From IMG/VR virus record IMGVR_UViG_2648501437_000013: 34,339 nucleotides of DNA. One strand, given 5' to 3'. This document shows positions 12,646 to 33,907 of the stretch, in pieces (position 1 is the first letter of the stretch; every line of letters starts with the position of its first letter). Made by a program: the position numbers and the translations under genes. Under the pieces are notes generated by a model, which saw nothing but the letters and a program-made list of their open reading frames with translations, was not told the DNA's origin and did not search any database. This DNA is from a virus (lineage: Duplodnaviria > Heunggongvirae > Uroviricota > Caudoviricetes).

Positions 12646-12663
12646 GATAGGCACTTACCTATC
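12646..12663. promoter_or_regulatory. Palindrome GATAGGCACTTACCTATC upstream of nrdA
   Basis: Arms GATAGG/CCTATC; recurrent motif family. Confidence 0.45.
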
Positions 12664-16128: not shown

Positions 16129-17214
16129 TCACACAGCCTCCGAACTCTCCGCTTCGGTGAGGATTTCCTGACACAAAATATCCAACTTGCTCAGATCAAA
16201 TCCGCCGTCAGTATCGTGGACAATCTTGCAATAAGCAGATACCGACTCTCCCAGGCTATCGATTTTGCTGGTTTCCGTTGTGCTTGCTGTCCCTTCCATC
16301 ATTGATGACTTACGGATGAAGTTGCACACAACACCTTTTGCACCCATTGTTTTGAGGATGTTCTGGTACTTAATGCCTTCTTCGTCGTTCTCGATTACGG
16401 CGCGGAAACGCACGTAGTTGCCGCGAATTTGGTCATCAGCAACATAATCTTCCAGGTTAATGAATTTAGGCGCACTGGTTTCGTAGTGACTGAAACTGCC
16501 GTCCGGGTTTACGATCATGTAACCAGCCAGAGATCCAACATCTCCCCAATTTTGATGGGTCAGTGCACCGACACTGATAACTCCAGGAATGACCTCTTTG
16601 TGGTTGTGGTAATGCCCACTAAGCACGAGACGAAAGCCGATATCCTTTAACTCCTGCGCATCGATACCGACGTCAGGCATTGTTGGAATGGCTTTGTTAA
16701 TGGATGTATGGATAACAACATCATGATTATCACCTTCTACGCTCTTACGTAATGCTTTCAGATCGCTGATAAGCTCTGCATGATTGTTACGCCAGCTAAT
16801 CAGGTGGACAGTCACATCACCAATTTTTATTGAGTGTGGGCGCTTGCCACATACGATTACCACGCCGATAGAACTCAGCGATGCTGCTGCGTTGGCGCTA
16901 TATACTGAATCGTTGGTTTCAAGATCGTGATTACCGGCCAGCATTACTACTGTCAGATCAAGCTCGTTGATAATCCACTTGTACGTTTCAGTTACGTAAT
17001 GCAAAACAGAAGGGGACACAGTTCCTCGGACGTGAAATGTATCACCGGCAACCAACATGTACTTACAACCGGCCTTCTTCATGGCGATGGCTGCTTCTTT
17101 CGTTGCTTCCAACTGTATTTCAAGTCTGGAGTTAAGCCCCTCAGCGTTCGTCGTGGAGAACGCATCCCATTTGTGGTAGTGGCAGTCAGAAATGACGCCG
17201 TATGGCAAAGTCAT
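16129..17214 (-). CDS. SbcD/Mre11-like nuclease (calcineurin-like phosphoesterase)
   Basis: Motifs ISDCHYH, AGDTFH, GNHD, GHYH; start moved from track TTG (17244) to ATG at ~17214 preceded by CCACAAAGGAAAAACAC. Confidence 0.8.
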   Translation of the reverse strand: MTLPYGVISDCHYHKWDAFSTTNAEGLNSRLEIQLEATKEAAIAMKKAGCKYMLVAGDTFHVRGTVSPSVLHYVTETYKWIINELDLTVVMLAGNHDLETNDSVYSANAAASLSSIGVVIVCGKRPHSIKIGDVTVHLISWRNNHAELISDLKALRKSVEGDNHDVVIHTSINKAIPTMPDVGIDAQELKDIGFRLVLSGHYHNHKEVIPGVISVGALTHQNWGDVGSLAGYMIVNPDGSFSHYETSAPKFINLEDYVADDQIRGNYVRFRAVIENDEEGIKYQNILKTMGAKGVVCNFIRKSSMMEGTASTTETSKIDSLGESVSAYCKIVHDTDGGFDLSKLDILCQEILTEAESSEAV

Positions 17215-17324
17215 GTGTTTTTCCTTTGTGGTTATTTGATACAAATCTTAAGCTTGCTCGAGAGGTGAGCAACCAAGACAGCACGGCACAGAAGAACATC
17301 AACAGGCATAGTATTACAAAATAA

Positions 17325-17344
17325 ATAGGTAAGTGAATACCTAC
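17325..17344. promoter_or_regulatory. Palindrome ATAGGTAAGTGAATACCTAC in the divergent AT-rich region upstream of sbcD
   Basis: Arms TAGGTA/TACCTA; same motif family as 2311..2330. Confidence 0.45.
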
Positions 17345-18753: not shown

Positions 18754-18793
18754 GCTGTAAGCCGCGCCACGACTGGTCTGAAGCCATGTTCAT

Positions 18794-18895
18794 GTATGCT
18801 ACCAGCGGTAATTGATAGTCTGTCAACGGTTCGCCGTATGCTGCCAACTGTTTTTGGTATGCTGCCAGCGGCAAATCAAGTATGCTGTCAGCGGT
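18794..18895 (+). repeat. Origin-proximal iteron array (about 4 copies of TATGCTGYCAGCGGT, two degenerate)
   Basis: Copies at 18794, 18837 (degenerate), 18858, 18881, directly upstream of the repA start. Confidence 0.75.
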
Positions 18896-18915
18896 TGAAT
18901 GACAAAGGTGTCCAC

Positions 18916-20010
18916 ATGTCCACAAAAAATAAAAAAGGTAAAAATAACAAAGAAGTAGAAGATAATCTCGACAACTTTGAAGAAGGTTCCCTTGAATTGT
19001 ACACAGGGGAACTTGTCCCTAATAGCAACAATACAGTCCAACCAATTGCGTTGATGCGGCTGGGGTTGTTCGTGCCCACGCTCAAGGGGACAAAATACAG
19101 CAAGCGTAACAAGCCAAATGAGATCGATGCTTCAAAGGAGCTTGTTCAGCTCGAAGTAGCCCGTTCTGAAGGTTATTCCGATATCAAGATAACCGGTCCT
19201 CGTCTCGACATGGATCATGATTTCAAAACGTGGGTGGGCGTTGTGCGTTCGCTGGCAGAATACGGCGAACCTAACGGTCGTGTCGAGTTAAGCATCACGA
19301 AATTTGCGAAGTTTTGTGGCTATCCATCGTCACAGATCCGCAAAACACTCCGCGACCGGCTTACAAACAGTCTTTTGAAGATCATGCGTACAACTCTGTC
19401 TTTTCAGAGAACGTATGAAGAAAAGAACGTCGACGGCTCTAACAAGATCTCGCTTCTGATGGTGCACCTCATCAATAGCGTGGACTACAACGAGCAGAAA
19501 GATACGGTGGTGTTCTATGCAGAACCGAAGCTGGCCGAACTATATCGCTTTGACCATAAAGTTCTTTTGCAGTTAAAGGTTATCAATAAGCTACCACGCA
19601 AAGAAACAGCACAGGCTCTGTACACCTTCATCGAAAGTCTTCCAACCAAGCCTGCGCCGGTATCGCTTGCTCGATTACGTGCGCGACTCAATTTGAGTAG
19701 CAGGAATGTCAGCTCGCAGAATCAGACTATACGTAACGGCTTAAAAGCTCTCCAAGATTTGGGCTATCTCGAATACAGCGAGATTAAGCGAGGGCGGTCG
19801 ATCTATATCCAGATTCACAGCCGCAATCCAAAACTCAAAGTCGCACCGCCAAAACCTGAAGACATCGAACCCAAAAAACCAGATGAGAAAGCTGGGGAAA
19901 TTGATGCCAAACAGAACATTATCAACAAGATAACCGAACTTTCGCAGAATTTGACGCCTGAAAATATCAAGATGATTGAGATCCTTTCCAATAGTCTCAA
20001 ACTGCTTTGA
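18916..20010 (+). CDS. repA: Replication initiator RepA (P1 RepA / RepFIB-type)
   Basis: Recalled similarity to P1 RepA (NSNNTVQPIALMRLGLFVP, DIKITGPRLDMDHDFKTW, YTFIESLP, HSRNPKLK); start moved to ATG 18916 (AAAGG RBS) because the track start reads through the iterons. Confidence 0.85.
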   Translation: MSTKNKKGKNNKEVEDNLDNFEEGSLELYTGELVPNSNNTVQPIALMRLGLFVPTLKGTKYSKRNKPNEIDASKELVQLEVARSEGYSDIKITGPRLDMDHDFKTWVGVVRSLAEYGEPNGRVELSITKFAKFCGYPSSQIRKTLRDRLTNSLLKIMRTTLSFQRTYEEKNVDGSNKISLLMVHLINSVDYNEQKDTVVFYAEPKLAELYRFDHKVLLQLKVINKLPRKETAQALYTFIESLPTKPAPVSLARLRARLNLSSRNVSSQNQTIRNGLKALQDLGYLEYSEIKRGRSIYIQIHSRNPKLKVAPPKPEDIEPKKPDEKAGEIDAKQNIINKITELSQNLTPENIKMIEILSNSLKLL

Positions 20011-20542
20011 TATGCTGTCAGCGGTGAAATGTATGCTATCAGCGGCTATTTTTCTGAAAAGTATGCTGTGAACGGTTAAAGATATGCTACCAGCGGTATA
20101 GTGAGATAAACGTATGCTGTGAGCGGTAAATCATCTATCACCACTCAATGCTCTGGCATACCTCCCCAGTGGTTACTAACCTCGAAGAGTGCATTCCATA
20201 TAGGTTTGCGCTCACTAACATTCTATTGCCGTTGCGCTGATTGCTTGTAGTGAAAGGCATTTATTGCCTGCTGCTCCCTGATAGAACGTATGCTGTCAGC
20301 GGTGTTTTATTGAGGAATTTTTGTTTGGATATGCTATCAGCGGTAATTAATGGTATATGTCAGACCTTCGTATGCTGCCAGCGGTAATTTTGTTCTGGTT
20401 ATACCCATACCGGTACACATTATTCATGCAATGTCTTAAGTATGCTGTCAGCGGTAAAAAATCGAGTAAAGTATGCTGTGAGCGGTGAGATAAACTCTCG
20501 ATATGCTATCAGCGGTAATTGATTGTGTATGCTGTCAGCGGT
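20011..20542 (+). repeat. Downstream iteron array, 12 copies of TATGCT(G/A)(T/C)(C/G)A(G/A)CGG(T/C) in two groups (5 + 7) separated by a ~160-bp spacer
   Basis: Copies at 20011, 20032, 20062, 20083, 20113, 20289, 20330, 20371, 20441, 20472, 20503, 20528, all in the same orientation; position matches a P1 incA-like copy-control locus. Confidence 0.8.
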
Positions 20543-20558
20543 GACGACTATGAAATAT

Positions 20559-20580
20559 GACTGCGGCACGTGCCGCAGTC
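20559..20580. terminator. Perfect 22-bp palindrome GACTGCGGCACGTGCCGCAGTC
   Basis: Read directly; sits between the iteron array and the stop of minus gene 20590..20802; no strong T-run, so it may be a protein-binding site rather than a terminator. Confidence 0.4.
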
Positions 20581-20589
20581 AGTTTGCAT

Positions 20590-20802
20590 TTAGTGTATTT
20601 TCTTTAACAGACCCCAAAGTGTTCCGGCTTTTGTAGTCAGTTTTCCTGTTTCTGGATCGTACATACGCCATTCACGCCGCTGGTGGACGATATACCCATC
20701 TTCACGTTCCAGACGCTCAAGAATGCCAGGCTGCTTGAAACCCTTAGCACGCCAGTAGCCGCTTGTTTTCTCGATTTCCAGACCTGCCAGTGTTAATGCC
20801 AT
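20590..20802 (-). CDS. Hypothetical protein (70 aa)
   Basis: Intact ORF translationally coupled to the upstream gene. Confidence 0.4.
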   Translation of the reverse strand: MALTLAGLEIEKTSGYWRAKGFKQPGILERLEREDGYIVHQRREWRMYDPETGKLTTKAGTLWGLLKKIH

Positions 20803-21313: not shown

Positions 21314-21352
21314 GATAGGTAGATACTAACTTATATAAATTTTACTGTAAAC

Positions 21353-21628: not shown

Positions 21629-21683
21629 GTGTTTTTCCTTTTGTGGTTAGTGTTTACTTATTTTGTTAGTTATGAATAGGCGA

Positions 21684-22159: not shown

Positions 22160-22196
22160 AAAAAAGGCGTCCAACTGGACGCCTGAACTTTTTAGG
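22160..22196. terminator. Rho-independent terminator A6-GGCGTCCA-act-GGACGCC-T5
   Basis: GC-rich stem flanked by A-run and T-run (bidirectional); downstream of the SPFH gene. Confidence 0.8.
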
Positions 22197-22200: not shown

Positions 22201-23031
22201 TTATTTCACTGTAATGAAAGGAGTGTTAGCCCCTTGAGTCATGTACTGCGGTAACTGGCCATTCCATTTATTGATGGCTTCCAGTTCCATAACGTTCGGG
22301 TTTTGACGCAGAGCTTCACCGCGCAGACGAATGGCGTCTGCTTCTGCTTGCGCACGAGCACGGATAGCATCAGCTTCACCATTAGCCTGTTCACGTAGCA
22401 TATTCGCCTCAGCTTTACGTTGTTCAACTTCCTGCTGACGTTGCAGAGTACGCTGGTTAGCCGTTACTTTGGCGTTAATAGATTCAATGACAGTTTTTGG
22501 GTAATCAGGCTTTCCAACCCATGACAGGCTCAGTACCTCAATACCAACCGGAGACATCTCTTTCTGAATATCTTTCAGTGCGTTGTCCAGCAATTGTGCC
22601 TTACCACCGTCGATAAATGAGTCAGTGGTCATACGGCTGGCCAAACGGTTTAGAGAGTCGGCAATTTTCTGACGCAGATCTGATTCGGTGATATCGTCTA
22701 CGCCTTTGCGATAGGTCTGGAACACCGTCGTTACCTTGTCACGATTAACCAGATACGCAACGCCAATTTTGTGACCAATAGCAGTACCGTCACTCATCTG
22801 GAATGTGAACGGCTCGTCGTAGGTCTTCATTTGTTTGAAGGTCGGGAATACGTAAAGTTCGGTGTTAAGACCTGTCCATTGGCGACCAACGCCAACCACT
22901 TCACCAATCCCTTTGTCTTCACCTAATTTGTTTACTTTGATGCCAACGTATCCAGGCTCCACGCGATCGCAGCCAGTAAGACCCATTGTGCAAATAGCCG
23001 CCAGAGCAACTGCAAGTAAACCTTTCTTCAT
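22201..23031 (-). CDS. SPFH/Band-7 (stomatin/prohibitin-like) lipoprotein
   Basis: Signal peptide with lipobox LTGC; core resembles the SPFH domain; C-terminal Ala/Glu/Arg/Gln-rich coiled-coil region. Confidence 0.65.
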   Translation of the reverse strand: MKKGLLAVALAAICTMGLTGCDRVEPGYVGIKVNKLGEDKGIGEVVGVGRQWTGLNTELYVFPTFKQMKTYDEPFTFQMSDGTAIGHKIGVAYLVNRDKVTTVFQTYRKGVDDITESDLRQKIADSLNRLASRMTTDSFIDGGKAQLLDNALKDIQKEMSPVGIEVLSLSWVGKPDYPKTVIESINAKVTANQRTLQRQQEVEQRKAEANMLREQANGEADAIRARAQAEADAIRLRGEALRQNPNVMELEAINKWNGQLPQYMTQGANTPFITVK

Positions 23032-23034
23032 TAC

Positions 23035-23235
23035 TTATTTCCCCTTTGCTTTGATTAATGAGTTGATAAACTTACGACCAGCAATAAGACCGATTACAGG
23101 AGCACCAAAACCAACGATAACTCCAAACATGACGGCTAAATCACTCTTGGTAGAAATCAGCGACGGAACCAGTAAACCGTAGATGAGAGCCACTGAAAGG
23201 CCTGTGGCTACTGCCAATAGATAGATTTTGATCAT
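23035..23235 (-). CDS. Small membrane protein (66 aa, two TM segments), first gene of the SPFH operon
   Basis: Hydrophobic sequence MIKIYLLAVATGLSVALIYGLLVP...VIVGFGAPVIGLIAG; conserved leader upstream. Confidence 0.5.
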   Translation of the reverse strand: MIKIYLLAVATGLSVALIYGLLVPSLISTKSDLAVMFGVIVGFGAPVIGLIAGRKFINSLIKAKGK

Positions 23236-23267
23236 GTGTTTTCCTATGTGGTTGTTATGCGAAAATA

Positions 23268-23283
23268 ATAAGTAAGTGCTTAT
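23268..23283. promoter_or_regulatory. Palindromic motif ATAAGTAAGTGCTTAT upstream of the SPFH operon
   Basis: Arms ATAAG/CTTAT; recurrent motif family. Confidence 0.4.
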
Positions 23284-23297
23284 ATATTTTCAAGAGA

Positions 23298-23325
23298 TAA
23301 AAAAGGCGTCCTGTGGACGCCTTGT
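23298..23325 (-). terminator. Rho-independent terminator A6-GGCGTCC-tgt-GGACGCC (T6 on minus strand)
   Basis: Same GGCGTCC...GGACGCC stem as 22160 and 25635; downstream of the recombinase gene. Confidence 0.8.
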
Positions 23326-23327
23326 GT

Positions 23328-24401
23328 TTACTCTTCTACTGACTCGGTGGGGTTGTCTTTTGCTCTTCGGTCGTCGATTGCCTGCAAAGCCGCAATGATT
23401 TCAGCCAGTGGCTTCTCCCGATACATCTCGACGATCTGCGATTTGGTGTATTTCTTGTCACCAATTTCAACTCGCCCGCTGGCGTTCTTTGGCAGGTATC
23501 CTTCTTCCAGCATGTACTCGACGAGCGATTCGATAACGTCGAGGCCACGAGTAGGATCGAAGTAGAATTTCCAGGTGCATTTGCCATACGGTGGTGCAAC
23601 TTTGTTTTTGATGCATTCTGCGCCTACGTCCTGGCCGATCTTCTCTTTACCATCCTTCATCACCGATGCACCAAGACGGATACGTACAGAAGCGTAGAAC
23701 TTCGGTGAATCTCCACCTGGCGACGTAGTAGGGTCGCCAAACATTACACCGATTTTTGTGCGAACCTGATTCAAGAAGATGATGCAGGCGTTGTATTTGC
23801 GTGCCCACAAAGCCAGAGTAGGGAAGTTCGCACTCGTCGCACGAGCCAGTGCCGTATTGTCGTTCATGTTTAGCTGATCTTTGTCTTTGGCAGTGCCTTC
23901 AGCCATCTTTTCGAACTTCTCGGCTTTGGAGTTCGGAACCATAGACGCAAGAGAGTCAGCCACGATACAGATTGGTGCTGATTCGGGGATAAGCTCTTCA
24001 TCACGAACCAATTTAAGTATTGTGCCGATCAACTCTACAGAGTCTTCGAAGGTATCTGGCTGCTTGTATACCCACTGACCGTCATCCTCATCTGCGTTCA
24101 GGCCATTGGCGACAGCCAGGCCAACGTCAAAACTGTTTTCATGATCGAGGAATACCGCCAGACCATCTTGTTTTTGAGCGGAGATCATCGCTGCTGTTGC
24201 AAGGAACGTTTTCCCTGCACTTGGAGGACCGAATACTTCGACGATACGACCACATGGGAAGCCGCCATCGTAACGACCAGAAATAGCTTTGTTTAACGGT
24301 GGAAAGCCTGTATCAATCCAATGAGTTACTTTCTGAATTTCGTCGTTGCTACCGATTTTCTTTTTCAGAGCAAGTGCCAGTGCGGATTTTCCTTTTGCCA
24401 T
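23328..24401 (-). CDS. RecA-superfamily recombinase (UvsX/RecA-like)
   Basis: Walker A VEVFGPPSAGKTF, Walker B-like VFLDHENSFD; ~357 aa as for RecA/UvsX. Confidence 0.8.
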   Translation of the reverse strand: MAKGKSALALALKKKIGSNDEIQKVTHWIDTGFPPLNKAISGRYDGGFPCGRIVEVFGPPSAGKTFLATAAMISAQKQDGLAVFLDHENSFDVGLAVANGLNADEDDGQWVYKQPDTFEDSVELIGTILKLVRDEELIPESAPICIVADSLASMVPNSKAEKFEKMAEGTAKDKDQLNMNDNTALARATSANFPTLALWARKYNACIIFLNQVRTKIGVMFGDPTTSPGGDSPKFYASVRIRLGASVMKDGKEKIGQDVGAECIKNKVAPPYGKCTWKFYFDPTRGLDVIESLVEYMLEEGYLPKNASGRVEIGDKKYTKSQIVEMYREKPLAEIIAALQAIDDRRAKDNPTESVEE

Positions 24402-24403
24402 GA

Positions 24404-24676
24404 TCAGGCTCCTTTTGTTTCGTTGATTCGTTTTAAAGCGGCGGATTCATCGAATACAATCGCATCGTGGTTAAGGAGTCTGGATACACGAGCGAGGATT
24501 TTTACGACCTGCTCGCTGACTAATCCAAACTCGCGATCTGTCGCTTTCATTCCGGCAGCGCCTAGAATTGACGGCAGTGCGATGACAGCGTACTCACCGT
24601 GATAAAAGACAATCTCTTTTGCCAGTTGGGCAGGGGTGGTTGTAGCGCCATTGATAATCGATTTAAGCATTAGCAA
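24404..24676 (-). CDS. Hypothetical protein (90 aa)
   Basis: Intact ORF between FEN and recombinase, overlapping both. Confidence 0.45.
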   Translation of the reverse strand: MLMLKSIINGATTTPAQLAKEIVFYHGEYAVIALPSILGAAGMKATDREFGLVSEQVVKILARVSRLLNHDAIVFDESAALKRINETKGA

Positions 24677-25614
24677 TACCTTTCGAATGGAAGAACAAAC
24701 ACTTCAAGGTCTTCAAGGAACGAACGGAAATTCAGCTCGTAGCACAGTTGCTCGAATGCTTTCACGTCACGATTGCCTTTGATTGTTTCGATTTCGGTAG
24801 GCGGAAACTTCGTCTCAATCAGGTTCATTAGCGTGATGTTTCTCTTGAACGCTTCGAGCATTCGACAGCCTGTTTTCTCGTTGAAGGCATTCTTCGCTAG
24901 TTTGTTGAAGGCGGTCTTATGACGCCCTTTATTAACCACGATTGAGCCGTCGTTGATGCCGCGTACCATCGTTGCGACACTTCCCCATTCATGCAGCAGC
25001 TCTTTCGCACCGCCAGCACCAATGCCACCAACACCGCTAATGTTGTCCGAGTTATCGCCTTGTAATGCTTTTGCTTCCAAAAATGCGCGAGGCGTGGCGA
25101 ATCCTGTCAGCTCCGCAAATTGCTCAAAATTAACCTGCTTGTTTTTGGCGTCTTCACGCAGGCTTACCCAGCTTACGTTTTCACGAACTAACTGAAGCCA
25201 GTCGCTATCGCCTGTTAACAGATAGATGTGTTCAACGGTTGGCTGCGGTGCCATGCGGGATACCAGCAGCCCGGCCAGATCATCCGCTTCTGCATCTTTT
25301 GCAATGAGTTGGGTAACTCCAAGCGCGGTCATCATTTTGAGGATGTATGGCTTCTGGATAGCAAAGCCTTCCTTCATCTTTTTCATATCAGGATCGTCGT
25401 CGCGATTTGCTTTGTAGTCCGGGTAAAAGTCGCGACGCTTGTCACTAAATCCATCCCAAAGAATCATAGGTCGGGCATGGAGGATGGAGGCATAACGACG
25501 GACGTTCTTAACAAAGCCGAAAGCAGCCTGTACTTCCATTTCGCCGTTGTGCAATTTGTCAGATTGTTGGTGGTAATAACCCAGGCTATTGCCATCTACG
25601 AAGAGATAATTCAC
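24670..25614 (-). CDS. 5'-3' exonuclease / flap endonuclease (FEN, PIN + H3TH)
   Basis: Motifs VDGNSL, YKANR, EADD, TGDSDWLQL, GDNSDNISGVGGIG; track start (GTG 25665) lies in the upstream terminator hairpin, so start moved to GTG ~25614 preceded by GGAAGG. Confidence 0.8.
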   Translation of the reverse strand: MNYLFVDGNSLGYYHQQSDKLHNGEMEVQAAFGFVKNVRRYASILHARPMILWDGFSDKRRDFYPDYKANRDDDPDMKKMKEGFAIQKPYILKMMTALGVTQLIAKDAEADDLAGLLVSRMAPQPTVEHIYLLTGDSDWLQLVRENVSWVSLREDAKNKQVNFEQFAELTGFATPRAFLEAKALQGDNSDNISGVGGIGAGGAKELLHEWGSVATMVRGINDGSIVVNKGRHKTAFNKLAKNAFNEKTGCRMLEAFKRNITLMNLIETKFPPTEIETIKGNRDVKAFEQLCYELNFRSFLEDLEVFVLPFERYC

Positions 25615-25634
25615 CGGTACATTCCTTCCAAAAA

Positions 25635-25660
25635 GTAAGGCGTCCGTAGACGCCTTACTG
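25635..25660 (-). terminator. Rho-independent terminator GTAAGGCGTC-cgta-GACGCCTTAC (T5 on minus strand)
   Basis: 10-bp stem; downstream of the SSB stop (25675). Confidence 0.7.
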
Positions 25661-25674
25661 GTCACGTAATGGGA

Positions 25675-26703
25675 TTACAGAGAGTCCAGCTCTCTCAGTA
25701 GGTCATCCAGACCTTCATCTTCCGTCGCAGATGCGGTTGCTACAGATGTCGCTGCGACTGCTTCAGACTCTTTGACTGATACGGCAACGGCAGCGGAACT
25801 TGCCTCTGGTTTAAATTCAGTTTCAACGGCACGGAGGATTTCTTCATCAACCAGACTGGTTGGTTCAGAAGCCGGTGTGTGCGCGGTTGCTACAGCCGTC
25901 GCTCCTTCTGTATGACCAGTGACAGAGCCAAATCCAGGTAGTGCCGCAGCCGATGTTTTCGCGGTTGAGGAAATTGCTGGTGCAGATGCTGCGGCAGTTG
26001 GTGCAGCGATGCCAATCAGACGACCCATAGTGCGAACTGTCGACAGAAGACGAGTTTCATCAGCCTGATTTGCGTATGCGATCAGATCATGCTGGGTGTT
26101 CCAGAATTTATCTTCGATATCGCCTTTGTAGACTTTACGCTTAGGCGAGACGTCATATTTGGTATCGCGACCAGAGCCAGTACGTTTAATCAGGAATGCG
26201 TAGCCTTCCTCTTTGCTCAGTGGATTGCCGATATCATCAGCGATGTCTTCGGTGATTGCTTTGCAGATATCATCGAATACAGTAGACGGCAGCTCGATTA
26301 ACTGGCATTTCTCAGCATCTGCGAAATCCTCACGAGCAGAAAGAATGCCGTTGACCAGGTAGCGAGGAGTGGCACGCATTTGACCGATGCGTTCTTCCAT
26401 TGCTTTGTTACCCTTGTGACGAGCGCGACCTTCCATCACCATTTCGCATAGCTGACAAGCGCGACCGTGAGTATGTTGCTCACAAATATAAGCGTTGGTT
26501 GCTTCTTTACCTTCCTCGTTCTGATACTTAACGTAGTGCATACCGAAAGTCTGGAAGAACTTACCGTTTGGGTCGTCTTTATTCGGGAAGATGCGGATAT
26601 AGTTGACGCCGTCTTTTAAGCGAGTCAGATCAACGTTGTTACCACGTTTGGCGGCAATGTCTTCACGAGTTTTGTTAAGCAAATCAAGTAATGTCTTAGA
26701 CAT
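25675..26703 (-). CDS. Single-stranded DNA-binding protein, T4 gp32-like
   Basis: Cys/His cluster CEQHTHGRACQLCEM, Ala/Ser/Thr-rich linker, acidic C-terminal tail EDEGLDDLLRELDSL. Confidence 0.55.
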   Translation of the reverse strand: MSKTLLDLLNKTREDIAAKRGNNVDLTRLKDGVNYIRIFPNKDDPNGKFFQTFGMHYVKYQNEEGKEATNAYICEQHTHGRACQLCEMVMEGRARHKGNKAMEERIGQMRATPRYLVNGILSAREDFADAEKCQLIELPSTVFDDICKAITEDIADDIGNPLSKEEGYAFLIKRTGSGRDTKYDVSPKRKVYKGDIEDKFWNTQHDLIAYANQADETRLLSTVRTMGRLIGIAAPTAAASAPAISSTAKTSAAALPGFGSVTGHTEGATAVATAHTPASEPTSLVDEEILRAVETEFKPEASSAAVAVSVKESEAVAATSVATASATEDEGLDDLLRELDSL

Positions 26704-26786
26704 GTGTTTCTCCTTGTTGTGATTTGGCCGATGGCGCTATGCGCGTTGGGCTTTCGTTCATTCGTGGCTCTTTCGAGCTGTTAAAT

Positions 26787-26815
26787 GATAGATCAGTGCT
26801 TACTTATTATCTATC
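26787..26815. promoter_or_regulatory. Palindrome GATAGAT-cagtgcttacttatt-ATCTATC upstream of the SSB gene
   Basis: 7-bp outer arms; inner part matches the recurrent ATAAGTAAG core. Confidence 0.4.
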
Positions 26816-26820
26816 AAAAA

Positions 26821-27252
26821 TCAACGGGGAGTGATAAAGCGTTCAGAGCCTAATCGCTCTAATTCAACGATGGCCATCTTTGACGCCTGAACGATCATGT
26901 CTCGGCGATGCGAAAAGGCGGCGACAGCATGTTTGTATATGTCTGCGATGTGCCGTGCTTCATCCAACTTCTGCCGTTTAGACAGATACTGTGGGTTTGT
27001 TTTAACCTTAGCGTCCAGTACAGATTCGTTGAACTTAATGCCGTTCATACTCAAGTTCTTACGCTCTGTGTCGTATAGCTTTGCTTCAACAGCTTCAAGG
27101 TTAAGTTTTGCTTCTGCGACACTTCTTTCTGCATGGGCGAGTTTTGAGCCATATTCCATCAACAGGCGGGGTTGTCTACGCCAGACTTCTTCCAGATTGT
27201 CTCGGTCAAACTCGAGATCAGACATTATTTTCTCGTAAATATCGGCGATCAT
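26821..27252 (-). CDS. Hypothetical protein; possible UvsY-like recombination mediator
   Basis: Start set at ATG ~27252 (AAGGAAA RBS) rather than track 27276; weak, memory-based resemblance to T4 UvsY plus neighbourhood with UvsX-like and gp32-like genes. Confidence 0.4.
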   Translation of the reverse strand: MIADIYEKIMSDLEFDRDNLEEVWRRQPRLLMEYGSKLAHAERSVAEAKLNLEAVEAKLYDTERKNLSMNGIKFNESVLDAKVKTNPQYLSKRQKLDEARHIADIYKHAVAAFSHRRDMIVQASKMAIVELERLGSERFITPR

Positions 27253-27286
27253 GCACATTTCCTTATCACTTATCATTTTGTATTGA

Positions 27287-27295
27287 TTATATCAT
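27287..27295 (-). promoter_or_regulatory. Extended -10 promoter element TGATATAAT (minus strand)
   Basis: Perfect TATAAT with TG two nt upstream, ~35 nt upstream of the ATG at 27252. Confidence 0.5.
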
Positions 27296-27325
27296 TGTAA
27301 TGATGAGGCAATGAGCTTGAAGATA

Positions 27326-27371
27326 GGGGGGGGAGGGGATAAGGGAAAACATGGCCTTTATGGCCATGTTT
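27326..27371. other. G8-A-G4-ATAA-G3 tract followed by 10-bp hairpin AAACATGGCC-tttat-GGCCATGTTT, just downstream of the dnaE stop
   Basis: Read directly; on the minus-strand transcript the hairpin is followed by a C-rich run, not a U-tract. Confidence 0.5.
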
Positions 27372-27377
27372 ATTGGA

Positions 27378-30300
27378 TCACGTCTTAATAGTTTCTGCTA
27401 CGTCGGCTAATATCGCTTCTAGTCGTTCTCCCTCTTCAGGTCTGAAGTAAAGAATGTTGGGGTTAAACCCGTAAAAGACAGTAACGTCAAGGTCTGGAAG
27501 ATACTCCTTCCTGCCGACCAAATCGGATGGCTTGTTTTTGTTGTTAAACAATGCCGTTGCCCGGCTGCCACACGTCAGCACATAGGTCGGACGCACCAGA
27601 TTGATCTCTTCACGTATAAAGTCGGTGAACTGGCCGATCTCGTCTTTGGTGTAGTCTTTTTCTTTGTCTTTAACCTTCTTGCAAACGCCTGTGACATAGA
27701 GATCGCCCATGCGTAAATCTCCAGCCGTCAATAGCTTGGCCTTAAAGTCGTCGTATCCGTTCTCCATAAAGTAACCGGTTCGAGCATCATTGCCGTTCGC
27801 ATTGTCCAGAATGATCATGATTTTCGGCTTAATACCAATGCTGGGGCGGATTAGTTCATCACCTAAGCCCATTTCAGCCGCCATCCGCGTCATGAGTACG
27901 TTAATTTCAGCCGAACGTTTGGGGTTCATCTCAAACGGACGTGAGGCTTTAACTGCGTCTATGACAAGATTTCCCATCAATTCAGCCTGGTCGCGTAGGC
28001 GCTCTGGAGCAGTTGCTGGCAGACTACCTGGCTCGATGGATGCAAACGCCCCTACTTTTTGCAGCGATTCGCGCACTCGACTATTACAGGCACGTTTCTC
28101 GACAGCTTCTTCGAATTGCGCCAGTGACTCGAATTTGCCGCCAACTTTTTCTCGCGCTCTCATGATGGCTTGGCAGCCATTCTCAGAACACCCCTTCACA
28201 GCAGAGAATGGCGCATACAGCACCTGGCTGCCATCTTCAAGCGTGCGGATCTCGATTCGGTTAGATGACACGTTAACGTCTGGTGGCAATACGCGAATAC
28301 CATAGGTCAGCGCATCTTTAACCAGCCCTTGGTGTTTATCTTCGCCAAGAATAGTGAGAGCAGCAGCGAAAAACTCTGCGGGATAATGAGTTTTCAACCA
28401 CATAGATTGATAACTGATTAAGGAGTAAGCAACAGAGTGTGATTTGTTGAACTGGTAGGCACCATTTTTTTCGAATGCGGTCCAGATCTCCTTCGCTTTC
28501 ATCTCTGATAGCCCTGGATGTGACGCTGTAACGCGTACTGCGTTTATAGGTAGTTTTGCGCCGTGCTCAAGTGCCTCTTCGACAGTTTTCAGAGTTCCGT
28601 CTTCGCATTTAAAATGTTCCGCACGGTGAATGCGCTGTGTAGTGCCATCTTCCAGCTCAACGTCTATCCAGCCAGCTTGAGCCTGAACGATGAACTTCTC
28701 GCCCATGCTCTTCATTTTTTCCATGTCCTTTTTGCCGATCGCTTTACGAACACCGTCAGCTTCAGCCATTGTGAAGCCAGCAAGCAATCGAGTCGCGTTC
28801 ATCGTCTGTTCCTGATAGAGAATCACGCCATTTGTTTCTGCGGTAAGTTCATCAAGAACGGGGTGTAATGATTCCGGCGTCATAAAGCCTTTGGCTACAG
28901 AAACATAGTCATCCAACATGCCTGACTGAATTGGCCCTGGCCGGAAGAGCGCAGTCGTAGCGACGACCGTTTTAAAGCTCATTGGCTCAATTCCACCACC
29001 TAAATCTTTAAGCAGCTTGCGCATTGGGCCTGATTCAAGCTGGAAAACACCTTGAGTATACCCAGCAGCAAAACCATCCAGCACCTTGCGATCTTCAAGA
29101 GAAATGGCATCAAGATTGATATCTTCACCTGTGTTCTCTTTTATGTAGCGTTTTGCACTATCGAGCAAATCGAGAGTTGCCAGGCCAAGCACGTCCAGCT
29201 TAATTAGGCCCATAGCCTCGCAGTAACGCTTGTCAAATGCGATACAACGCGCGTCACCACGGCGCTCAACCGGTGTACGTTCTGTCAGAAGAACACCTGC
29301 TACGATCATCCCTGCCGCATGTCTACCAAAGCCACGCATAAGGCTTTGTAACTTGCAGGCTGCATTGAATGCATCAGGATATTTTGTTGCGTATTTGTCG
29401 AGACTTGCCAGTTGTTCGCGCAGCTCTTCCAATGGAAGGCTATCATCCTCGACGTTCTTCAGTTCTTTTGATACCGCCATATCTGCGGACTCCACACCAT
29501 AAATACGAGCGGTATCACGTAGTGCAGAGGCTGCGCCCAGGTAGGTGAAGTTCGGAATGCCTGCAACGTAATCTTCGCCGTAGCGTTCATTCAGATACTC
29601 GATCACTTCATGGCGACGTGCCTGGCTGAAGTCCAAATCCGCATCCGGCAAGTCGAGACGCTCAGGGTTGATGAAACGTTCAAACAGAAGACCGTGACGG
29701 ATTGGGTCGACGTTGGTTATGCCTATGCACCATGCCACCAGAGATCCAGCGGAGGAACCACGACCAGGCCCGACAGGAATGCCAGTTTCACGGCTGTGAT
29801 TCATCAGATCGCGTACCATCAGGAAGTAACCACAAAATCCCAGGCGAGTCAGCGTGTCCATTTCGTACTTTAGCCGCTCAACATAAACCCTGTTCTCAGA
29901 AGCAGGTGGTGTGTAGCCAAACTCTTTTGTGGTAAGACGTTTACGCAGCCCTGCAACAGCCAGTTTCATAAGCGTTGCAGGCTCGTCGTCTGCCATCTTT
30001 GGCAGTGCTGGCGGCAATTCATGCCAGCGCCATGTGCAGGCATCGATAATGGTATCCTGCGTTGTTGAGGCCATTGCAGCTGTTACCGGCACATCCATGC
30101 GAACGGAGAAGGCTTTAAGCGCCTCAAGGAGATGGCGGCGACCATTGACGGCGTTATCTCGCTGGTGGGGGATACGCAGACGATGCGGCTGGTCGATTTT
30201 GATGTTGTTCGTAACCATGTGCGCAATGTCTTTAATGTCTGCATCGTCGATCGATTCGTAATAAGCGGGATAGAACGCCACTGGCTCTATTTTCAATGCG

Positions 30301-30896
30301 CTGGCGACTTTCATCGCCCGGACGTTAATCTGGTCGTAGAATGGGGTAGGGTGCGGATAAACCACACTATAGAAGTTGTCTTTTCCACCCGCTGTAATCA
30401 GTGTGCTTATAATTTTTGCAAAATCGTTGCGTTGGAACACGCTACCGATGTCGGAAGTAAGCAGGATGATGTTGCCTTTGGCATATGTAGAAACCAACTG
30501 TTCGAGCGAGAGACGCGGTACAAAGTAGAACTGTTCTCGTGTGTTGGCCGCCGTCATTAGTTCGCAGATGTCGCGATATCCTTTCTCATTTTTAATTAGA
30601 GCGGTAAACGAGTAGTTACGTCCTCGCTCTAATGATTCCATACATCCCTTAGATTCTTTAGCAAGTTTAGCCCGGTGCTCGTATGTGGGATCATCAACGA
30701 TATTTAGTTTCACACCACAAATAACCGCCATGTCGCCACCAGCGGCACGTTGTAGTGGAATAACACTCGCAATATTCATGCTATCTGCTGAAATTACAGC
30801 GGTGTAGCCAGCTTCTCTGGCAATCTTCACCGCGTTTTCTGCTTTTAAAGCCGACTCCCCAAGTGAGAAGTCAGTTCGAACCATCAGTGCCTTCAT
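27378..30896 (-). CDS. dnaE: DNA polymerase III alpha subunit (DnaE-type replicative polymerase, N-terminal PHP domain)
   Basis: 1172 aa; PolC/DnaE palm motif GYFLMVRDLMNHSRETGIPVGPGRGSSAGSLVAWCIGITNVDP; PHP-like N-terminus; length close to E. coli DnaE, no intein-sized insertion. Confidence 0.9.
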   Translation of the reverse strand: MKALMVRTDFSLGESALKAENAVKIAREAGYTAVISADSMNIASVIPLQRAAGGDMAVICGVKLNIVDDPTYEHRAKLAKESKGCMESLERGRNYSFTALIKNEKGYRDICELMTAANTREQFYFVPRLSLEQLVSTYAKGNIILLTSDIGSVFQRNDFAKIISTLITAGGKDNFYSVVYPHPTPFYDQINVRAMKVASALKIEPVAFYPAYYESIDDADIKDIAHMVTNNIKIDQPHRLRIPHQRDNAVNGRRHLLEALKAFSVRMDVPVTAAMASTTQDTIIDACTWRWHELPPALPKMADDEPATLMKLAVAGLRKRLTTKEFGYTPPASENRVYVERLKYEMDTLTRLGFCGYFLMVRDLMNHSRETGIPVGPGRGSSAGSLVAWCIGITNVDPIRHGLLFERFINPERLDLPDADLDFSQARRHEVIEYLNERYGEDYVAGIPNFTYLGAASALRDTARIYGVESADMAVSKELKNVEDDSLPLEELREQLASLDKYATKYPDAFNAACKLQSLMRGFGRHAAGMIVAGVLLTERTPVERRGDARCIAFDKRYCEAMGLIKLDVLGLATLDLLDSAKRYIKENTGEDINLDAISLEDRKVLDGFAAGYTQGVFQLESGPMRKLLKDLGGGIEPMSFKTVVATTALFRPGPIQSGMLDDYVSVAKGFMTPESLHPVLDELTAETNGVILYQEQTMNATRLLAGFTMAEADGVRKAIGKKDMEKMKSMGEKFIVQAQAGWIDVELEDGTTQRIHRAEHFKCEDGTLKTVEEALEHGAKLPINAVRVTASHPGLSEMKAKEIWTAFEKNGAYQFNKSHSVAYSLISYQSMWLKTHYPAEFFAAALTILGEDKHQGLVKDALTYGIRVLPPDVNVSSNRIEIRTLEDGSQVLYAPFSAVKGCSENGCQAIMRAREKVGGKFESLAQFEEAVEKRACNSRVRESLQKVGAFASIEPGSLPATAPERLRDQAELMGNLVIDAVKASRPFEMNPKRSAEINVLMTRMAAEMGLGDELIRPSIGIKPKIMIILDNANGNDARTGYFMENGYDDFKAKLLTAGDLRMGDLYVTGVCKKVKDKEKDYTKDEIGQFTDFIREEINLVRPTYVLTCGSRATALFNNKNKPSDLVGRKEYLPDLDVTVFYGFNPNILYFRPEEGERLEAILADVAETIKT

Positions 30897-31076
30897 GTGT
30901 TTTTACCTTTCTGGTTTTTTTGATTTTGTCATTTGGGAAGCCTACGAACTTCCCATGCATCGAAATCGCAACTTCTTTTGCTGATTGGTGACAATCAGGC
31001 TTGTCTGGACACACCAGACAAGCCTTACCAGTTTCAGAAGCAGCGATAAGAGAGCCGAAACATCCTTTACGCACGA

Positions 31077-32312
31077 TCAACCAAATATTTTTTGAACAAC
31101 TTCACGAGCCGCTTGTGCAGAAGCTGAAGGGAGTTTGTTAATGAAAGAACGCTCAATACCTGTCACAAAGTCGCCTCGCATCATTCCAATCTTGGCCGAC
31201 AACAAAAGTTCACGAGGGCCAATTGGCTGACTGATAAGGTGTTCTTCGTATCCATCGCGAACGATACCGGCAAACTTAACCATCTTTTCTGCGTATTCAC
31301 CCACGATACCGGCATTTATCAACATGTTGATCTCTGCCTCTTTGCTCATGTATTTCACATTCGAAACGATGCCAAAACGCGAAAAGTTCGCGGCGTTCTG
31401 GATGTTTGTACCCTGGTACAAGCCGGTTTCATCACCAGATCCGTTCGTGTTGCCAGTGCCAATGAAAGCAAACCGTTCATGCGGAGTAATGCGACGCCAT
31501 TCTGGAGTCGCCTCTTTGATGACCAACGCTTCACCTTCCAGCACTGGCTGATACACGCCAAGAATCTGTGGAAACGCAAAGTCGTATTCATCCGCGAGGT
31601 AAACCCAGCCATGCTTCATTGCGAGCGCAAGCAAGCCAGGCTCGAAATACGTAGAGCCATCACGCGCCAGAATTTGCCCCGTAACATGTGCCTCTTCCAT
31701 TGATGCTGTATGTTGGGCACGGATCAACGGACGATTGAGCAAAGCACATAGCTGTGTAGGCAATGACGATTTGCCTGTTCCTGCATGACCCCACAAATAG
31801 CCAGGTATGCCAAGTTCAAGCATCATGAAAATATCTTTGATCAGTTCGAAGTCGCCATATACGTAGCCCTTCTTCACTTCTGGAACGAACTCTGGATACG
31901 GCGTATTGACGTTGACGCTAACCATGAGCGGCGTCCCACGTTTTGTTCCGAGTTCTTCCACCGTTACGTTTAGCAGTTCGTGAGCTGCGACCAGATCTGT
32001 CTTGTACTCAACTGTGCCTGTGTAGCCAGGGCTACTGGTCAAGCCAGAAGATTTGGCCATTTCGCTTTTTTGCTCGGCACGTTTAGCTTGAATTGCATCA
32101 AGTGCCTTTTTCGATAGCGTTGGCTCATCTGGAAACTGCGTTGTGTACATTTTCAGTACGGTGTCAGGATCGGCATCTTTTACTGACTCAGGAATGCCCT
32201 CGCAATTACCATTGGCTACATGGGACTTAAAATAGTGAAATGATTTGCCGCACCACTTGCAAACAAGGTAATCAGAATGATTTTTTTCATTTTGCAGTGC
32301 AGTAGTCGTCAT
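31077..32312 (-). CDS. MoxR/CbbQ-class AAA+ ATPase (CobS-like) with N-terminal Cys-rich zinc-finger-like segment
   Basis: Walker A GHAGTGKSS, Walker B-like WVYLADEYD; N-terminal CKWCG...H...C; directly upstream of a vWA protein. Confidence 0.7.
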   Translation of the reverse strand: MTTTALQNEKNHSDYLVCKWCGKSFHYFKSHVANGNCEGIPESVKDADPDTVLKMYTTQFPDEPTLSKKALDAIQAKRAEQKSEMAKSSGLTSSPGYTGTVEYKTDLVAAHELLNVTVEELGTKRGTPLMVSVNVNTPYPEFVPEVKKGYVYGDFELIKDIFMMLELGIPGYLWGHAGTGKSSLPTQLCALLNRPLIRAQHTASMEEAHVTGQILARDGSTYFEPGLLALAMKHGWVYLADEYDFAFPQILGVYQPVLEGEALVIKEATPEWRRITPHERFAFIGTGNTNGSGDETGLYQGTNIQNAANFSRFGIVSNVKYMSKEAEINMLINAGIVGEYAEKMVKFAGIVRDGYEEHLISQPIGPRELLLSAKIGMMRGDFVTGIERSFINKLPSASAQAAREVVQKIFG

Positions 32313-32371
32313 GCGTTTTTCCTTTGTTCTCTAATGAGCGTTCAACTTCTTATATAAATATACCATTAACT

Positions 32372-32391
32372 ATCGTAAGTGGTTACTTATC
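32372..32391. promoter_or_regulatory. Palindromic motif ATCGTAAGTGGTTACTTATC upstream of the AAA+ ATPase gene
   Basis: Matches the 7931..7946 variant (ATAAGTAACCACTTAT). Confidence 0.4.
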
Positions 32392-32407
32392 ATTAAGGCT
32401 GTTTTAT

Positions 32408-33907
32408 TCACTTCAAAATGATACGAGATAGTTCAGTAACTACAGATGAACCAAGACTATCAACGCTCGTTACCAGGGCATGATTTGAGTAAAATCTCTC
32501 CGGTGCGTCAGTCATGATGCCAATTGCCATCAAATCAATGTCAGTCTGCGTTTCAATTTGCTTCGCAACCGAACGCAAATGAGCGTCAAAACCTCTCCCA
32601 ACAGCCCACGGCGCGCCATCACTCAGAACAAGCATGATCTTCCTGTCCTCCATGCGACCGGAAAATAACGATGCAAGGCTGGCTATGCTTTCACCATCCA
32701 CGTTATTAAGAAGTGGGAATGTGTAGCCTACGCACCCCATACGTGAGCGAACTTCGCGAGAATTTACCTTTTCATTCCAATTTTTGATGATAGGTAGCAT
32801 TAAAGATTCAAAGCGAGAGAACTCATACTTGACAGCCTTAAGTTCTCCTGCCGCCATATGACTACCAAATGTAGTGAAGCCGGTGATAATGTTGGGAACA
32901 TTTATTCGATCAAGGGCATCGGCGATGGTATATGCACTTGCAAGAGCCAATTGTATCGTTATACCACTCATTGAACCTGATAAATCAATCACTTGTTGAA
33001 CACAGGCGTTAACGGCTTTAGATTCTTCTTTTTTACGAAACACGCGATCATCATTCATTGCTAATCTGTAGATACTAGAACCATGAATGCGCCCCCGACG
33101 CTGGCCCGGTATAAACTGAACTCTGTTTCTGCTTGCTATTGCTCGCTCCAAGTCTTTTGCCAGCGTCGACGAAACACCTGACGAAAGATGCTTTTCAATA
33201 TATTTGTCGAAGAGCTGGTTGCCTTCAGGAACGATGCGATAGCGGCTGATTGGATATCCTCCTAAATCAATATCGGAGAATGTTTTAATAAGCCGTTTGA
33301 TATGGGCTTCTGCCTGATCAATCGAGCCGATGAAGTCGTATGAGCGATTGTATGGCCTGTATTCGCTTTTCGAGCTTTCTGTTAACTCGCTTTTAATCGT
33401 TTCGGATAGAGCATCTTCTGTCATGCCTCCGACTTCATCTTCTATGCTATCCAGCTCCTCTAAAGCCTCTTCCAGACTCATTTTTGACGGAGTTGGAATA
33501 TCTGAAGAGCCGTCTTCTGTCGTTTTTCTTTTTTCGTGGTCAGCGATAAATGATTCTGACACCGCGTTATCAGAAGCATCAGAATCTGATACCTCTTTAT
33601 CATTTTCTGTATCATCGAATATTGTTTCTGATGATTCAGAATTATCTGAATCATCACTGTCGTTATTATCATGTTTGTGCTTACTGTGTGATTCTGATTT
33701 GATAGATTTGTGATTATCTAACGCTGAGGGTGTCTCATGATCTTCGTTGTCTTCATTGTTTTCTCCAGAGGCATCCGTCTGGTCAGCGTCTGAAGGATCG
33801 GAAGTTTTTCCCGGAGCTGACTCCTTACCTTTGCTTTCACTTTCAGTGTCTTTGAGGATCTTAGCTATGGTCGCAGCCACCTTTACACAATCCTCGGTGC
33901 AAGACAT
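32408..33907 (-). CDS. von Willebrand factor A (vWA) domain protein, CobT-like, with ~150-aa acidic Ser/Asp-rich N-terminal region
   Basis: MIDAS motif VIDLSGSMSG; ATG at 33905-33907 lies 1 nt from the IS2 terminus. Confidence 0.7.
   Translation of the reverse strand: MSCTEDCVKVAATIAKILKDTESESKGKESAPGKTSDPSDADQTDASGENNEDNEDHETPSALDNHKSIKSESHSKHKHDNNDSDDSDNSESSETIFDDTENDKEVSDSDASDNAVSESFIADHEKRKTTEDGSSDIPTPSKMSLEEALEELDSIEDEVGGMTEDALSETIKSELTESSKSEYRPYNRSYDFIGSIDQAEAHIKRLIKTFSDIDLGGYPISRYRIVPEGNQLFDKYIEKHLSSGVSSTLAKDLERAIASRNRVQFIPGQRRGRIHGSSIYRLAMNDDRVFRKKEESKAVNACVQQVIDLSGSMSGITIQLALASAYTIADALDRINVPNIITGFTTFGSHMAAGELKAVKYEFSRFESLMLPIIKNWNEKVNSREVRSRMGCVGYTFPLLNNVDGESIASLASLFSGRMEDRKIMLVLSDGAPWAVGRGFDAHLRSVAKQIETQTDIDLMAIGIMTDAPERFYSNHALVTSVDSLGSSVVTELSRIILK

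Follow-up and report, generated by a model that had tools for sequence, protein, structure and literature searches.

Genes for a UvsY-like mediator, a gp32-family protein and a bacterial-type RecA beside dnaE in an SSU5-like phage-plasmid, and their possible role in recombination-dependent replication

A cluster of genes encoding a recombinase, a flap endonuclease (FEN), a single-stranded-DNA-binding protein (SSB) and a small protein with a UvsY-like pattern lies beside a bacterial-type DnaE polymerase gene in a 34,339-nt stretch of viral DNA (IMG/VR record IMGVR_UViG_2648501437_000013), the whole of which is called the window here. The question raised by this locus is whether it encodes a presynaptic system of the T4 kind and, if so, what use an element equipped with DnaE might make of it. 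The original prediction, made from the sequence alone, had read positions 23328 to 27276 as a T4-style module for recombination-dependent replication and had called its association with DnaE unusual. The recombinase, SSB, FEN and small-protein genes were indeed contiguous on the minus strand, which carries nearly all genes of the window; the module, backed by strong family matches, is gene content and not a chance pattern.

The nature of the element was evident from its relatives. Over window positions 23000-31000, nucleotide identity was 97.9% to Escherichia phage CMS-2020a, 97.2% to PhiR41_1, 94% to Cyrano, the pLF82 phage-plasmid of E. coli LF82, and 82% to Salmonella phage SSU5, and blocks collinear with Cyrano and SSU5 covered most of the window length. 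Identity of 82-98% over 8 kb, synteny and a gene for RepA mark the element as a temperate phage-plasmid of E. coli belonging to the SSU5 group, and by its collinearity with its relatives the window is the DNA-metabolism arm of this element. The original prediction had missed the phage-plasmid nature and the element's own RepA; genes for partition and for the virion fall outside the window and are known here from the Cyrano annotation alone. In the SSU5-group relatives (SSU5, Cyrano, CMS-2020a and Klebsiella) the module was present at 82-98% nucleotide identity and in the same gene order. Its genes are already named in the public Cyrano record, where CYRAN_52 is 'UvsY recombination mediator', CYRAN_53 'SSB T4 gp32-like', CYRAN_54 'Exonuclease' and CYRAN_55 'RecA', so that the element is of a known type and carries divergent proteins of known kinds. 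Pfeifer et al. (PMC7969092) also count RecA-like proteins as persistent in the SSU5 supercommunity. The features of the module and its borders, together with the replication initiator, were as follows (aa, amino acids).

18796-20010: RepA, Rep3 type (Rep3_N, Pfam), 404 aa
23303-23323, minus strand: intrinsic terminator (9-bp GC-rich stem and TTTTTT) ending the gp32-FEN-orf88-recA unit
23328-24401, minus strand: RecA-family recombinase, 357 aa, intein-free (Pfam RecA, PF00154, 2.2e-42)
24404-24670, minus strand: conserved 88-aa protein encoded between the FEN and RecA genes (PHROG 2207, 'function unknown', 5e-54)
24670-25614, minus strand: FEN / 5'-3' exonuclease, 314 aa (Pfam 5_3_exonuc_N 2.2e-24, 5_3_exonuc 6.9e-12)
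25630-25658, minus strand: hairpin and U-run right after the gp32 stop codon (GUAAGGCGUC-UAC-GGACGCCUUAC then UUUUU)
25675-26703, minus strand: gp32-family SSB, 342 aa (Pfam gp32, PF08804, 1.7e-66)
26785-26813, minus strand: promoter-like site upstream of the gp32 gene (TAGATA-17-TATCAT), overlapping a palindrome at 26788-26807
26821-27252, minus strand: UvsY-like recombination mediator, 143 aa (PHROG 231, UvsY-like, 1e-4; profile and fold matches)
27286-27294, minus strand: extended -10-like element TGATATAAT upstream of the uvsY-like gene (consensus match only)
27344-27366, minus strand: terminator-like hairpin after dnaE (AACAUGGCC-AUAAA-GGCCAUGUU then UUUCCC)
27378-30896, minus strand: DnaE-type polymerase, 1172 aa (Pfam PHP, DNA_pol3_alpha, finger, HHH_6)
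27378-27920, minus strand: diverged domain of the uracil-DNA glycosylase (UDG) superfamily forming the C-terminal ~150-180 aa of DnaE (Pfam UDG, E 0.015)

Profile comparison and predicted fold assign the 143-aa protein to the UvsY superfamily as a divergent member. Its reading frame is supported by full-length homologues, nearly all of which have 143 aa; its ATG is preceded by an AAGGA ribosome-binding site, and translation from the ATG at 27276 is unlikely. A profile comparison of this open reading frame (ORF) with UvsY had been named beforehand as the check on its identity, and a match was found: in hhalign, an alignment of 82 family members and a UvsY reference alignment of seven sequences (T4, ECD7, Lw1, KVP40, two cyanophages and one Vibrio phage) agreed over 111 collinear columns with 85.8% probability and an E value of 5.4e-6. 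Individually, 11 of the 82 members hit Pfam UvsY (best E 7e-5), and the next family was hit by three. The AlphaFold2 model built on the 82-sequence alignment (predicted local distance difference test, pLDDT, 94.6; predicted template-modelling score, pTM, 0.81) consists of four helices and has the UvsY fold, in which short and long helices alternate, the N-terminal one being short and the C-terminal one long. When the model was compared with 350,542 PDB chains by Foldseek, ranks 1-19 were all T4 UvsY (TM 0.65-0.94, probability 1.0), with root-mean-square deviations down to 1.2 Å and 13-17% identity, and the next non-UvsY hit had a TM of at most 0.32. The T4 UvsY structures concerned (PDB 4zwq, 4zwr, 4zws and 4zwt) contain 7 or 14 chains per entry, forming a ring oligomer. 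Among predicted viral structures, the same fold was found in the annotated UvsY of cyanophage S-CAM3 and in a protein of Aeromonas phage 65.2 labelled single-stranded DNA-binding protein. Many uncharacterised proteins share it too, among them those of SPO1-like Bacillus phages and of Lactobacillus phage LP65. The KARL motif of T4 UvsY (LKARLDY), which binds single-stranded DNA (ssDNA), includes Lys58 and Arg60 (PMC3016280). In the hhalign alignment Lys58 corresponds to Arg64, which is at least 90% conserved among the 82 sequences, and Lys65 adjoins Asn66.

Three findings weigh against this assignment. The window protein gave no match to Pfam UvsY (PF11056) at E <= 1; Arg60 of T4, the second KARL residue, aligns with Asn66; and a shallow alignment of 14 sequences compared with the UvsY alignment gave only P = 0.016, a profile that is uninformative because the close relatives are too alike. 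Searches of PDB sequences with the protein and with its 14- and 82-sequence profiles also returned nothing related to UvsY. Low identity to T4 UvsY, the missing Pfam hit and the frequency of chance matches among helical folds would suit a generic four-helix protein that merely resembles UvsY and lacks mediator function, but such a look-alike is very improbable in view of the unbroken run of UvsY chains at the top of the Foldseek ranking with a sharp drop behind it, the collinearity of the profile match and the fact that UvsY is the sole Pfam family hit recurrently by family members. Gene neighbourhoods argue in the same direction, the gp32 gene directly adjoining the mediator gene in four of the six inspected and RecA being present wherever the contig is long enough. 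The mediator is encoded with a recombinase and a gp32-type SSB in the window, in Pseudomonas phage nickie and in contigs L014 and L016, with gp32, FEN and RecA genes alongside; in L021, gp32 lies beside the mediator gene and the contig then ends, and L020 has RecA. Because the curated Pfam model was not passed, the protein was filed as UvsY-like rather than as a member of PF11056. Interpretations as a defence-system protein or a generic coiled coil were rejected on fold and synteny.

The family to which the mediator belongs is large. A profile search of 1.84 billion cluster representatives gave 2,711 proteins at E <= 0.001, many of them 300-420 aa long with the UvsY-like domain at the C-terminus and N-terminal parts that matched no Pfam family. 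The SSU5 orthologue is still a 'hypothetical protein' in RefSeq, and the best-matching PHROGs are of 'unknown function'; the evidence given above connects UvsY with thousands of phage proteins of one family.

The partner proteins were assigned as follows. The SSB matched the whole gp32 profile (positions 1-208 of 208) with 224.7 bits against a cut-off of 26.8, and its family membership rests on this profile because phmmer found nothing among PDB sequences and BLASTP against T4 gp32 gave an E value of 0.064. In an alignment with T4 gp32 (sequence from the T4 record), whose structural Zn ligands are His64, Cys77, Cys87 and Cys90, the residues Cys74, Cys83 and Cys86 correspond to the three cysteines and the THG motif is conserved; for the Zn-site His the alignment is ambiguous, the candidates being His56, His77 and His79. 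A linker of 117 residues, rich in Ala, Ser and Thr, was also recognised, together with an acidic C-terminus (...EDEGLDDLLRELDSL) in which the last 40 residues include 9 acidic and 2 basic ones. The LDDLL motif is invariant in the window SSB, SSU5 and T4 gp32 (T4 C-terminus ...DDTDLDDLLNDL). The earlier description of a Zn-cluster SSB with an acidic tail was thus borne out. The N-terminus, MSKTLLDLLNKTR, at the place where gp32 has a basic domain serving cooperativity, aligned loosely with T4 residues 1-21, Lys3 and the L-L-N positions alone being common. In T4, the acidic C-terminal A-domain of gp32 is the binding place of UvsX and UvsY (PMC3016280). The leader of the window gp32 gene folds moderately better than shuffles, and since its z score is only -2.45 no translational autoregulation like that of T4 gp32 is claimed.

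The recombinase, which scored 145.8 bits with PF00154 (gathering cut-off 27) and has an intact P-loop (Walker A GPPSAGKT, residues 58-65), is by sequence a bacterial-type RecA. In phmmer searches of PDB it matched bacterial RecA at 6e-35 to 2e-30, two other phage recombinases at 1.5e-10 and 2.3e-9, and T4 UvsX (3io5) at 1.1e-5. From the label 'UvsX/RecA-like', therefore, the RecA half could be kept, and identity with UvsX was rejected, the protein being far closer to bacterial RecA. The Cyrano RecA has 779 aa and contains a LAGLIDADG intein of ~423 codons within the Walker A motif (L001 12330-14669); the insertion point corresponds to window positions 24206/24210, recA codons 64/65, where the window copy is uninterrupted.

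In the nuclease both domains passed their gathering scores (PF02739, 86.4 bits vs 34.3; PF01367, 46.1 vs 40), and the nearest solved relatives in PDB were T5 D15 exonuclease (4e-15) and the 5'-nuclease domains of Pol I. A flap endonuclease had been predicted correctly, but its sequence assigns it to the T5 D15 / Pol I 5'-nuclease family and not to a T4-style one. The mechanically called ORF extends to 25665; the true start is very probably the GTG at 25614, because a GGAAGGA ribosome-binding site precedes this codon, orthologues measure 945 nt, residue 18 is where the PHROG match starts, and the longer ORF would cross the stable hairpin and U-run that follow the gp32 stop codon. This hairpin (-19.8 kcal/mol, z -4.3; none of 200 shuffles folded as well) was missed by a consensus scan and read from the sequence, and is a candidate terminator or attenuator between gp32 and FEN. 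The start codon of the 88-aa ORF overlaps the FEN stop codon. Homologues of its product are nearly all encoded on enterobacterial contigs of phage-plasmid size (~100-110 kb); its AlphaFold model is helical (pLDDT 81), and it matched no Pfam family and gave no meaningful fold match in PDB.

Further genes of DNA metabolism lie elsewhere in the window.

3450-3998, minus strand: DnaQ/epsilon-like 3'-5' exonuclease, a separate proofreader (Pfam RNase_T 1.3e-22; PHROG 192, 'DNA polymerase exonuclease subunit', 6e-51)
3995-4789: ORF of the HNH-endonuclease family, 264 aa (PHROG 374, 2e-79), between the DnaQ-like gene and the next gene
12671-13240, minus strand: RuvC-like resolvase (PHROG 159, 3e-57)
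13250-13993, minus strand: protein without assigned function, between RuvC-like and SbcC
13983-15899, minus strand: SbcC-like (Pfam AAA_23, SMC_N, SbcC Walker B)
16129-17244, minus strand: SbcD-like (Pfam Metallophos)
31077-33907: CobS-like AAA_5 (MoxR-type) ATPase and CobT-like VWA protein, directly upstream of DnaE

The RuvC-like resolvase and SbcCD near the module, and DnaE with its separate DnaQ-like proofreader, were present as had been described. The window also encodes RNase H, Dam methylase, DHFR, a PNK-like phosphatase and thymidylate synthase, as well as MazG-like and NrdA/NrdB proteins named after the annotation of the Cyrano record, in which UvsW helicase, DNA helicase, primase and ligase are further listed; in the Cyrano 'UvsW' protein, generic helicase domains alone were confirmed.

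Taken with these genes, the module resembles the T4 presynaptic system in having a gp32-family SSB with Zn-site cysteines and an acidic LDDLL C-terminus, a mediator that has the UvsY fold and is close in length to that of T4 (143 vs 137 aa), a recombinase of the RecA superfamily, an Mre11/Rad50-type nuclease (SbcCD), a 5' nuclease and, in close relatives, a helicase bearing the annotation UvsW, and a hand-over of ssDNA from SSB to mediator to recombinase would be expected here by analogy. A T4-like accessory set was likewise recovered, comprising SbcCD (the equivalent of gp46/47), a resolvase, RNase H, ligase and PNK-, Nrd-, Td- and Frd-like genes. There are also differences. The recombinase is a bacterial-type RecA instead of UvsX, the UvsY is too diverged for the Pfam threshold, the nuclease belongs with T5 D15 and Pol I, the resolvase is RuvC-like instead of endonuclease VII, and the host element is a temperate siphovirus-type phage-plasmid instead of a virulent myovirus. 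DnaE and a DnaQ-like exonuclease stand in place of the family-B polymerase gp43, and the gp45 clamp, the gp44/62 loader and gp59 are not annotated in the relatives, so that a T4-type replisome (gp43, gp45, gp44/62, gp59) was not found. When the proposed search for replisome genes was made on the annotation of the 108-kb Cyrano, helicase and primase were present, and no clamp, clamp loader or gp59 was annotated anywhere in it. The bacterial RecFOR / RecO-RecR system meets the same problem with the same type of recombinase, as its mediator must displace SSB for RecA to nucleate; the two have no sequence or fold relationship, the mediator here having the UvsY fold, and the SSB here is of the gp32 type whereas the bacterial one is a homotetrameric OB-fold protein.

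The supposed rarity of the combination with DnaE was not upheld, since SSU5-group elements, Pseudomonas phage nickie and distant metagenomic phages all carry the same cassette. In nickie (Nickievirus) the order is CobT, CobS, DnaE with UDG, a 426-aa protein, gp32-like SSB, exonuclease, RecA, SbcD, SbcC and RuvC, and the UvsY-like domain forms the C-terminal third of the 426-aa protein (family match 99.8%). The core stretch of DnaE, UvsY-like and gp32 genes recurs in contigs L014, L016 and L021, the first two of which continue into FEN and RecA. Cassette proteins of nickie and the metagenomic phages are just about 25-32% identical to those of the window, and the mediator-family members on the cassette-bearing contigs only ~30%. 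One contig has a beta clamp and clamp loader added to the cassette, and in one the mediator-family gene adjoins a Pol A-type polymerase gene.

Regulatory signals around the module were examined next to expression in a relative. A 20-bp palindrome occurs in about ten intergenic copies:

96-115, 2311-2330, 7931-7950, 12643-12662, 17325-17344, 21315-21334, 21642-21661, 23268-23287, 26788-26807 and 32371-32390: copies of the palindrome

Its consensus is ATA(G/A)GTAAGT(G/A)CTTA(C/T)CTAT (ATAGGTAAGT or ACTTACCTAT), and the best copy, ATAGGTAATCACTTACCTAT at 2311-2330, is an 8-4-8 inverted repeat. A 16-base version gave 9 matches against 0.76 expected, and for the 20-base version 30 strand-hits compared with 1.9 in mononucleotide shuffles. 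Copies precede the genes for Dam, thymidylate synthase, the RuvC-like protein, SbcD and gp32 and are also found downstream of recA, with matches at syntenic sites in SSU5 and Cyrano; for the copy ATAAGTAAGCACTGATCTAT at 26788-26807, which overlaps the promoter-like site of gp32, this also holds. In the region of nickie examined, the palindrome was not found. The palindrome, which can be written ATAGGTAAGTACTTACCTAT, is a candidate dispersed operator through which lytic DNA-metabolism genes would be repressed, the homologue of Cyrano CYRAN_45 being the putative repressor, and its presence in the promoter regions of several operons suggests their common repression. The promoter calls themselves are weak, because the consensus scan for promoters and terminators was not enriched over shuffles. 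By folding, the three hairpins after dnaE (-15.4 kcal/mol, z -4.9), gp32 and recA (-14.7 kcal/mol, z -6.9) are significantly stable, and they bound apparent transcription units. Minus-strand hairpins at 22165-22184, 23303-23323 and 25635-25658 share a near-identical stem (AAGGCGTC.../...GACGCCTT).

In the transcriptome of the Cyrano LF82 lysogen, normalised means were 10.9 for UvsY, 9.1 for SSB, 6.6 for the exonuclease, 10.2 for RecA and 10.1 for DnaE, versus 133 for RepA, 96 for a putative repressor and 294 for HicA (PMC9928086, S1 Table). The module's orthologues are thus at background in a lysogenised relative of 94% identity, in which RepA is expressed. Such background expression, the hairpin-bounded units and the palindrome over the gp32 promoter-like site fit a lytic-phase role of the module.

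From this gene content, a role in recombination-dependent replication is plausible, and with moderate confidence we favour a scheme, modelled on T4 (PMC3016280), in which the module builds a RecA presynaptic filament for such replication in the lytic cycle and stays silent in lysogeny. Each biochemical step, the partnership of mediator and RecA and the use for replication rather than repair are what we infer by analogy. The gp32-family SSB would coat single strands uncovered by SbcCD resection or present at replication ends; the UvsY-fold mediator would bind and destabilise the gp32-ssDNA complex and pass the ssDNA to the element's own bacterial-type RecA; and the RecA filament would invade a homologous duplex, where the invading 3' end may prime the element's replisome. 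This replisome would consist of DnaE with its UDG-like domain and the DnaQ-like proofreader, joined by a DnaB-like helicase and a primase encoded just outside the window, and would presumably use the host sliding clamp. FEN, RNase H and ligase would mature lagging strands and trim flaps, SbcCD would resect ends, and the RuvC-like nuclease would resolve junctions before packaging. In the plasmid state, RepA and the host replisome would copy the element with the module silent, and the lytic cycle would switch the module on.

Several points count against this scheme. T4 UvsY partners UvsX and not RecA; a gp59-type helicase loader was not found; lytic replication might in principle also run from the RepA origin system; expression was measured in the relative Cyrano, and the values record silence in lysogeny only, not lytic induction; and the roles of the SSU5-group recombination genes rest on sequence and on the T4 analogy.

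A serious rival, if in our judgement an unlikely one, holds that the module serves recombinational repair, fork restart and the generation of mosaicism, RecA, UvsY and gp32 rescuing broken or restricted genomes and collapsed forks, and that lytic replication starts from the RepA or another origin. It stays serious because the element has a Rep3-type RepA, because its full helicase-primase-polymerase set could start without recombination, and because of the missing gp59-type loader; mosaic breaks relative to Cyrano in and around the module (3' part of dnaE, 84% vs ~97% in the flanks; RepA region replaced) also agree with it. However, the T4-like set of SbcCD, resolvase and UvsW-annotated helicase and the tight conservation of the cassette suit replication equally well, and the T4 proteins do both jobs, so that the two readings are not exclusive (PMC3016280). 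A further explanation, in which RecA is a signalling co-protease that senses ssDNA, brings about cleavage of the element's LexA/S24-type regulator and so controls induction, its neighbours being unrelated replication accessories, is suggested by the LexA-like S24 peptidase of Cyrano (CYRAN_98), the induction of Cyrano by genotoxic stress (PMC9928086) and the bacterial type of the recombinase, but is highly improbable, since the recA-like gene is at background in the lysogen where a sensor is needed and apparently shares a transcript with gp32 and FEN under a putative repressed promoter, since host RecA is available for SOS signalling, and since its linkage to mediator and gp32 in nickie, with no annotated lysogeny genes in the region viewed, favours strand exchange.

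Going beyond the favoured scheme of filament assembly for lytic replication, we tentatively suggest that UvsY-fold mediators form a very large, mostly unannotated phage family which partners bacterial-type RecA and gp32 beside DnaE-UDG as a distinct and widespread machine, and that in SSU5-type phage-plasmids this machine may be the lytic alternative to replication by RepA and the host, under one repressor acting through the 20-bp operator. If a UvsY-type mediator does work with a true RecA, the module would offer a simple setting in which to ask how a mediator recognises its recombinase. SSU5-group elements are reported to spread resistance genes in Enterobacteriaceae (PMC9600943), and for this reason the replication machinery used in each life-cycle state is of some practical interest.

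Other observations concern DnaE and the surrounding genes. The C-terminal 180 aa of DnaE gave four hits only among PDB sequences, all of them family-4 UDGs; the UDG domain was also recorded in the nickie orthologue (3.6e-12) and in metagenomic orthologues, and a homologue search with the C-terminal 200 aa returned fragments only. By eye, the expected catalytic-motif positions of the UDG-like domain look degenerate. The sequence QAELMG (residues 970-975) resembles the internal clamp-binding motif of E. coli alpha, QADMF. The 3' third of dnaE (27412-28451) is 84% identical to that of Cyrano and is followed by an unaligned gap at 28451-28701, the flanks being about 97-98% identical, a pattern read as a patch of mosaic recombination inside the gene. 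The spacer between dnaE and the uvsY-like gene (27253-27377) is variable: Cyrano has the HicA/HicB pair there, which is expressed in lysogeny and lacking in the window, SSU5 has three other small genes, and the window has just 101-125 nt with the terminator hairpin and the extended -10-like element.

The RepA region also differs from that of Cyrano. Positions 18782-20590 gave no nucleotide match to Cyrano or SSU5, and the flanks were 89-97% identical to Cyrano, which indicates that replication initiator and origin have been replaced. No RNA family from Rfam was detected anywhere in the window. At the place of the HNH ORF (3995-4789) no gene is annotated in Cyrano, and this ORF is probably a homing endonuclease insertion.

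A CobS/CobT-like pair before DnaE was also present in nickie (L018 1-2931) and in contigs L016 and L017, and of the pair L014 and L021 showed the CobS-like ATPase, with a gene lacking a recorded Pfam match in front of it. Because the linkage to the polymerase is conserved, a replication-related role of the CobS/CobT-like genes is suggested rather than one in cobalamin synthesis. In the window, homology to the Cyrano cobT-like gene ends at 33909 and is followed at 33920-34300 on the minus strand by the C-terminus of an rve/rve_3 transposase. The CobT-like VWA gene has therefore been split by an insertion sequence, which leaves an ORF of 499 aa instead of 702 aa.

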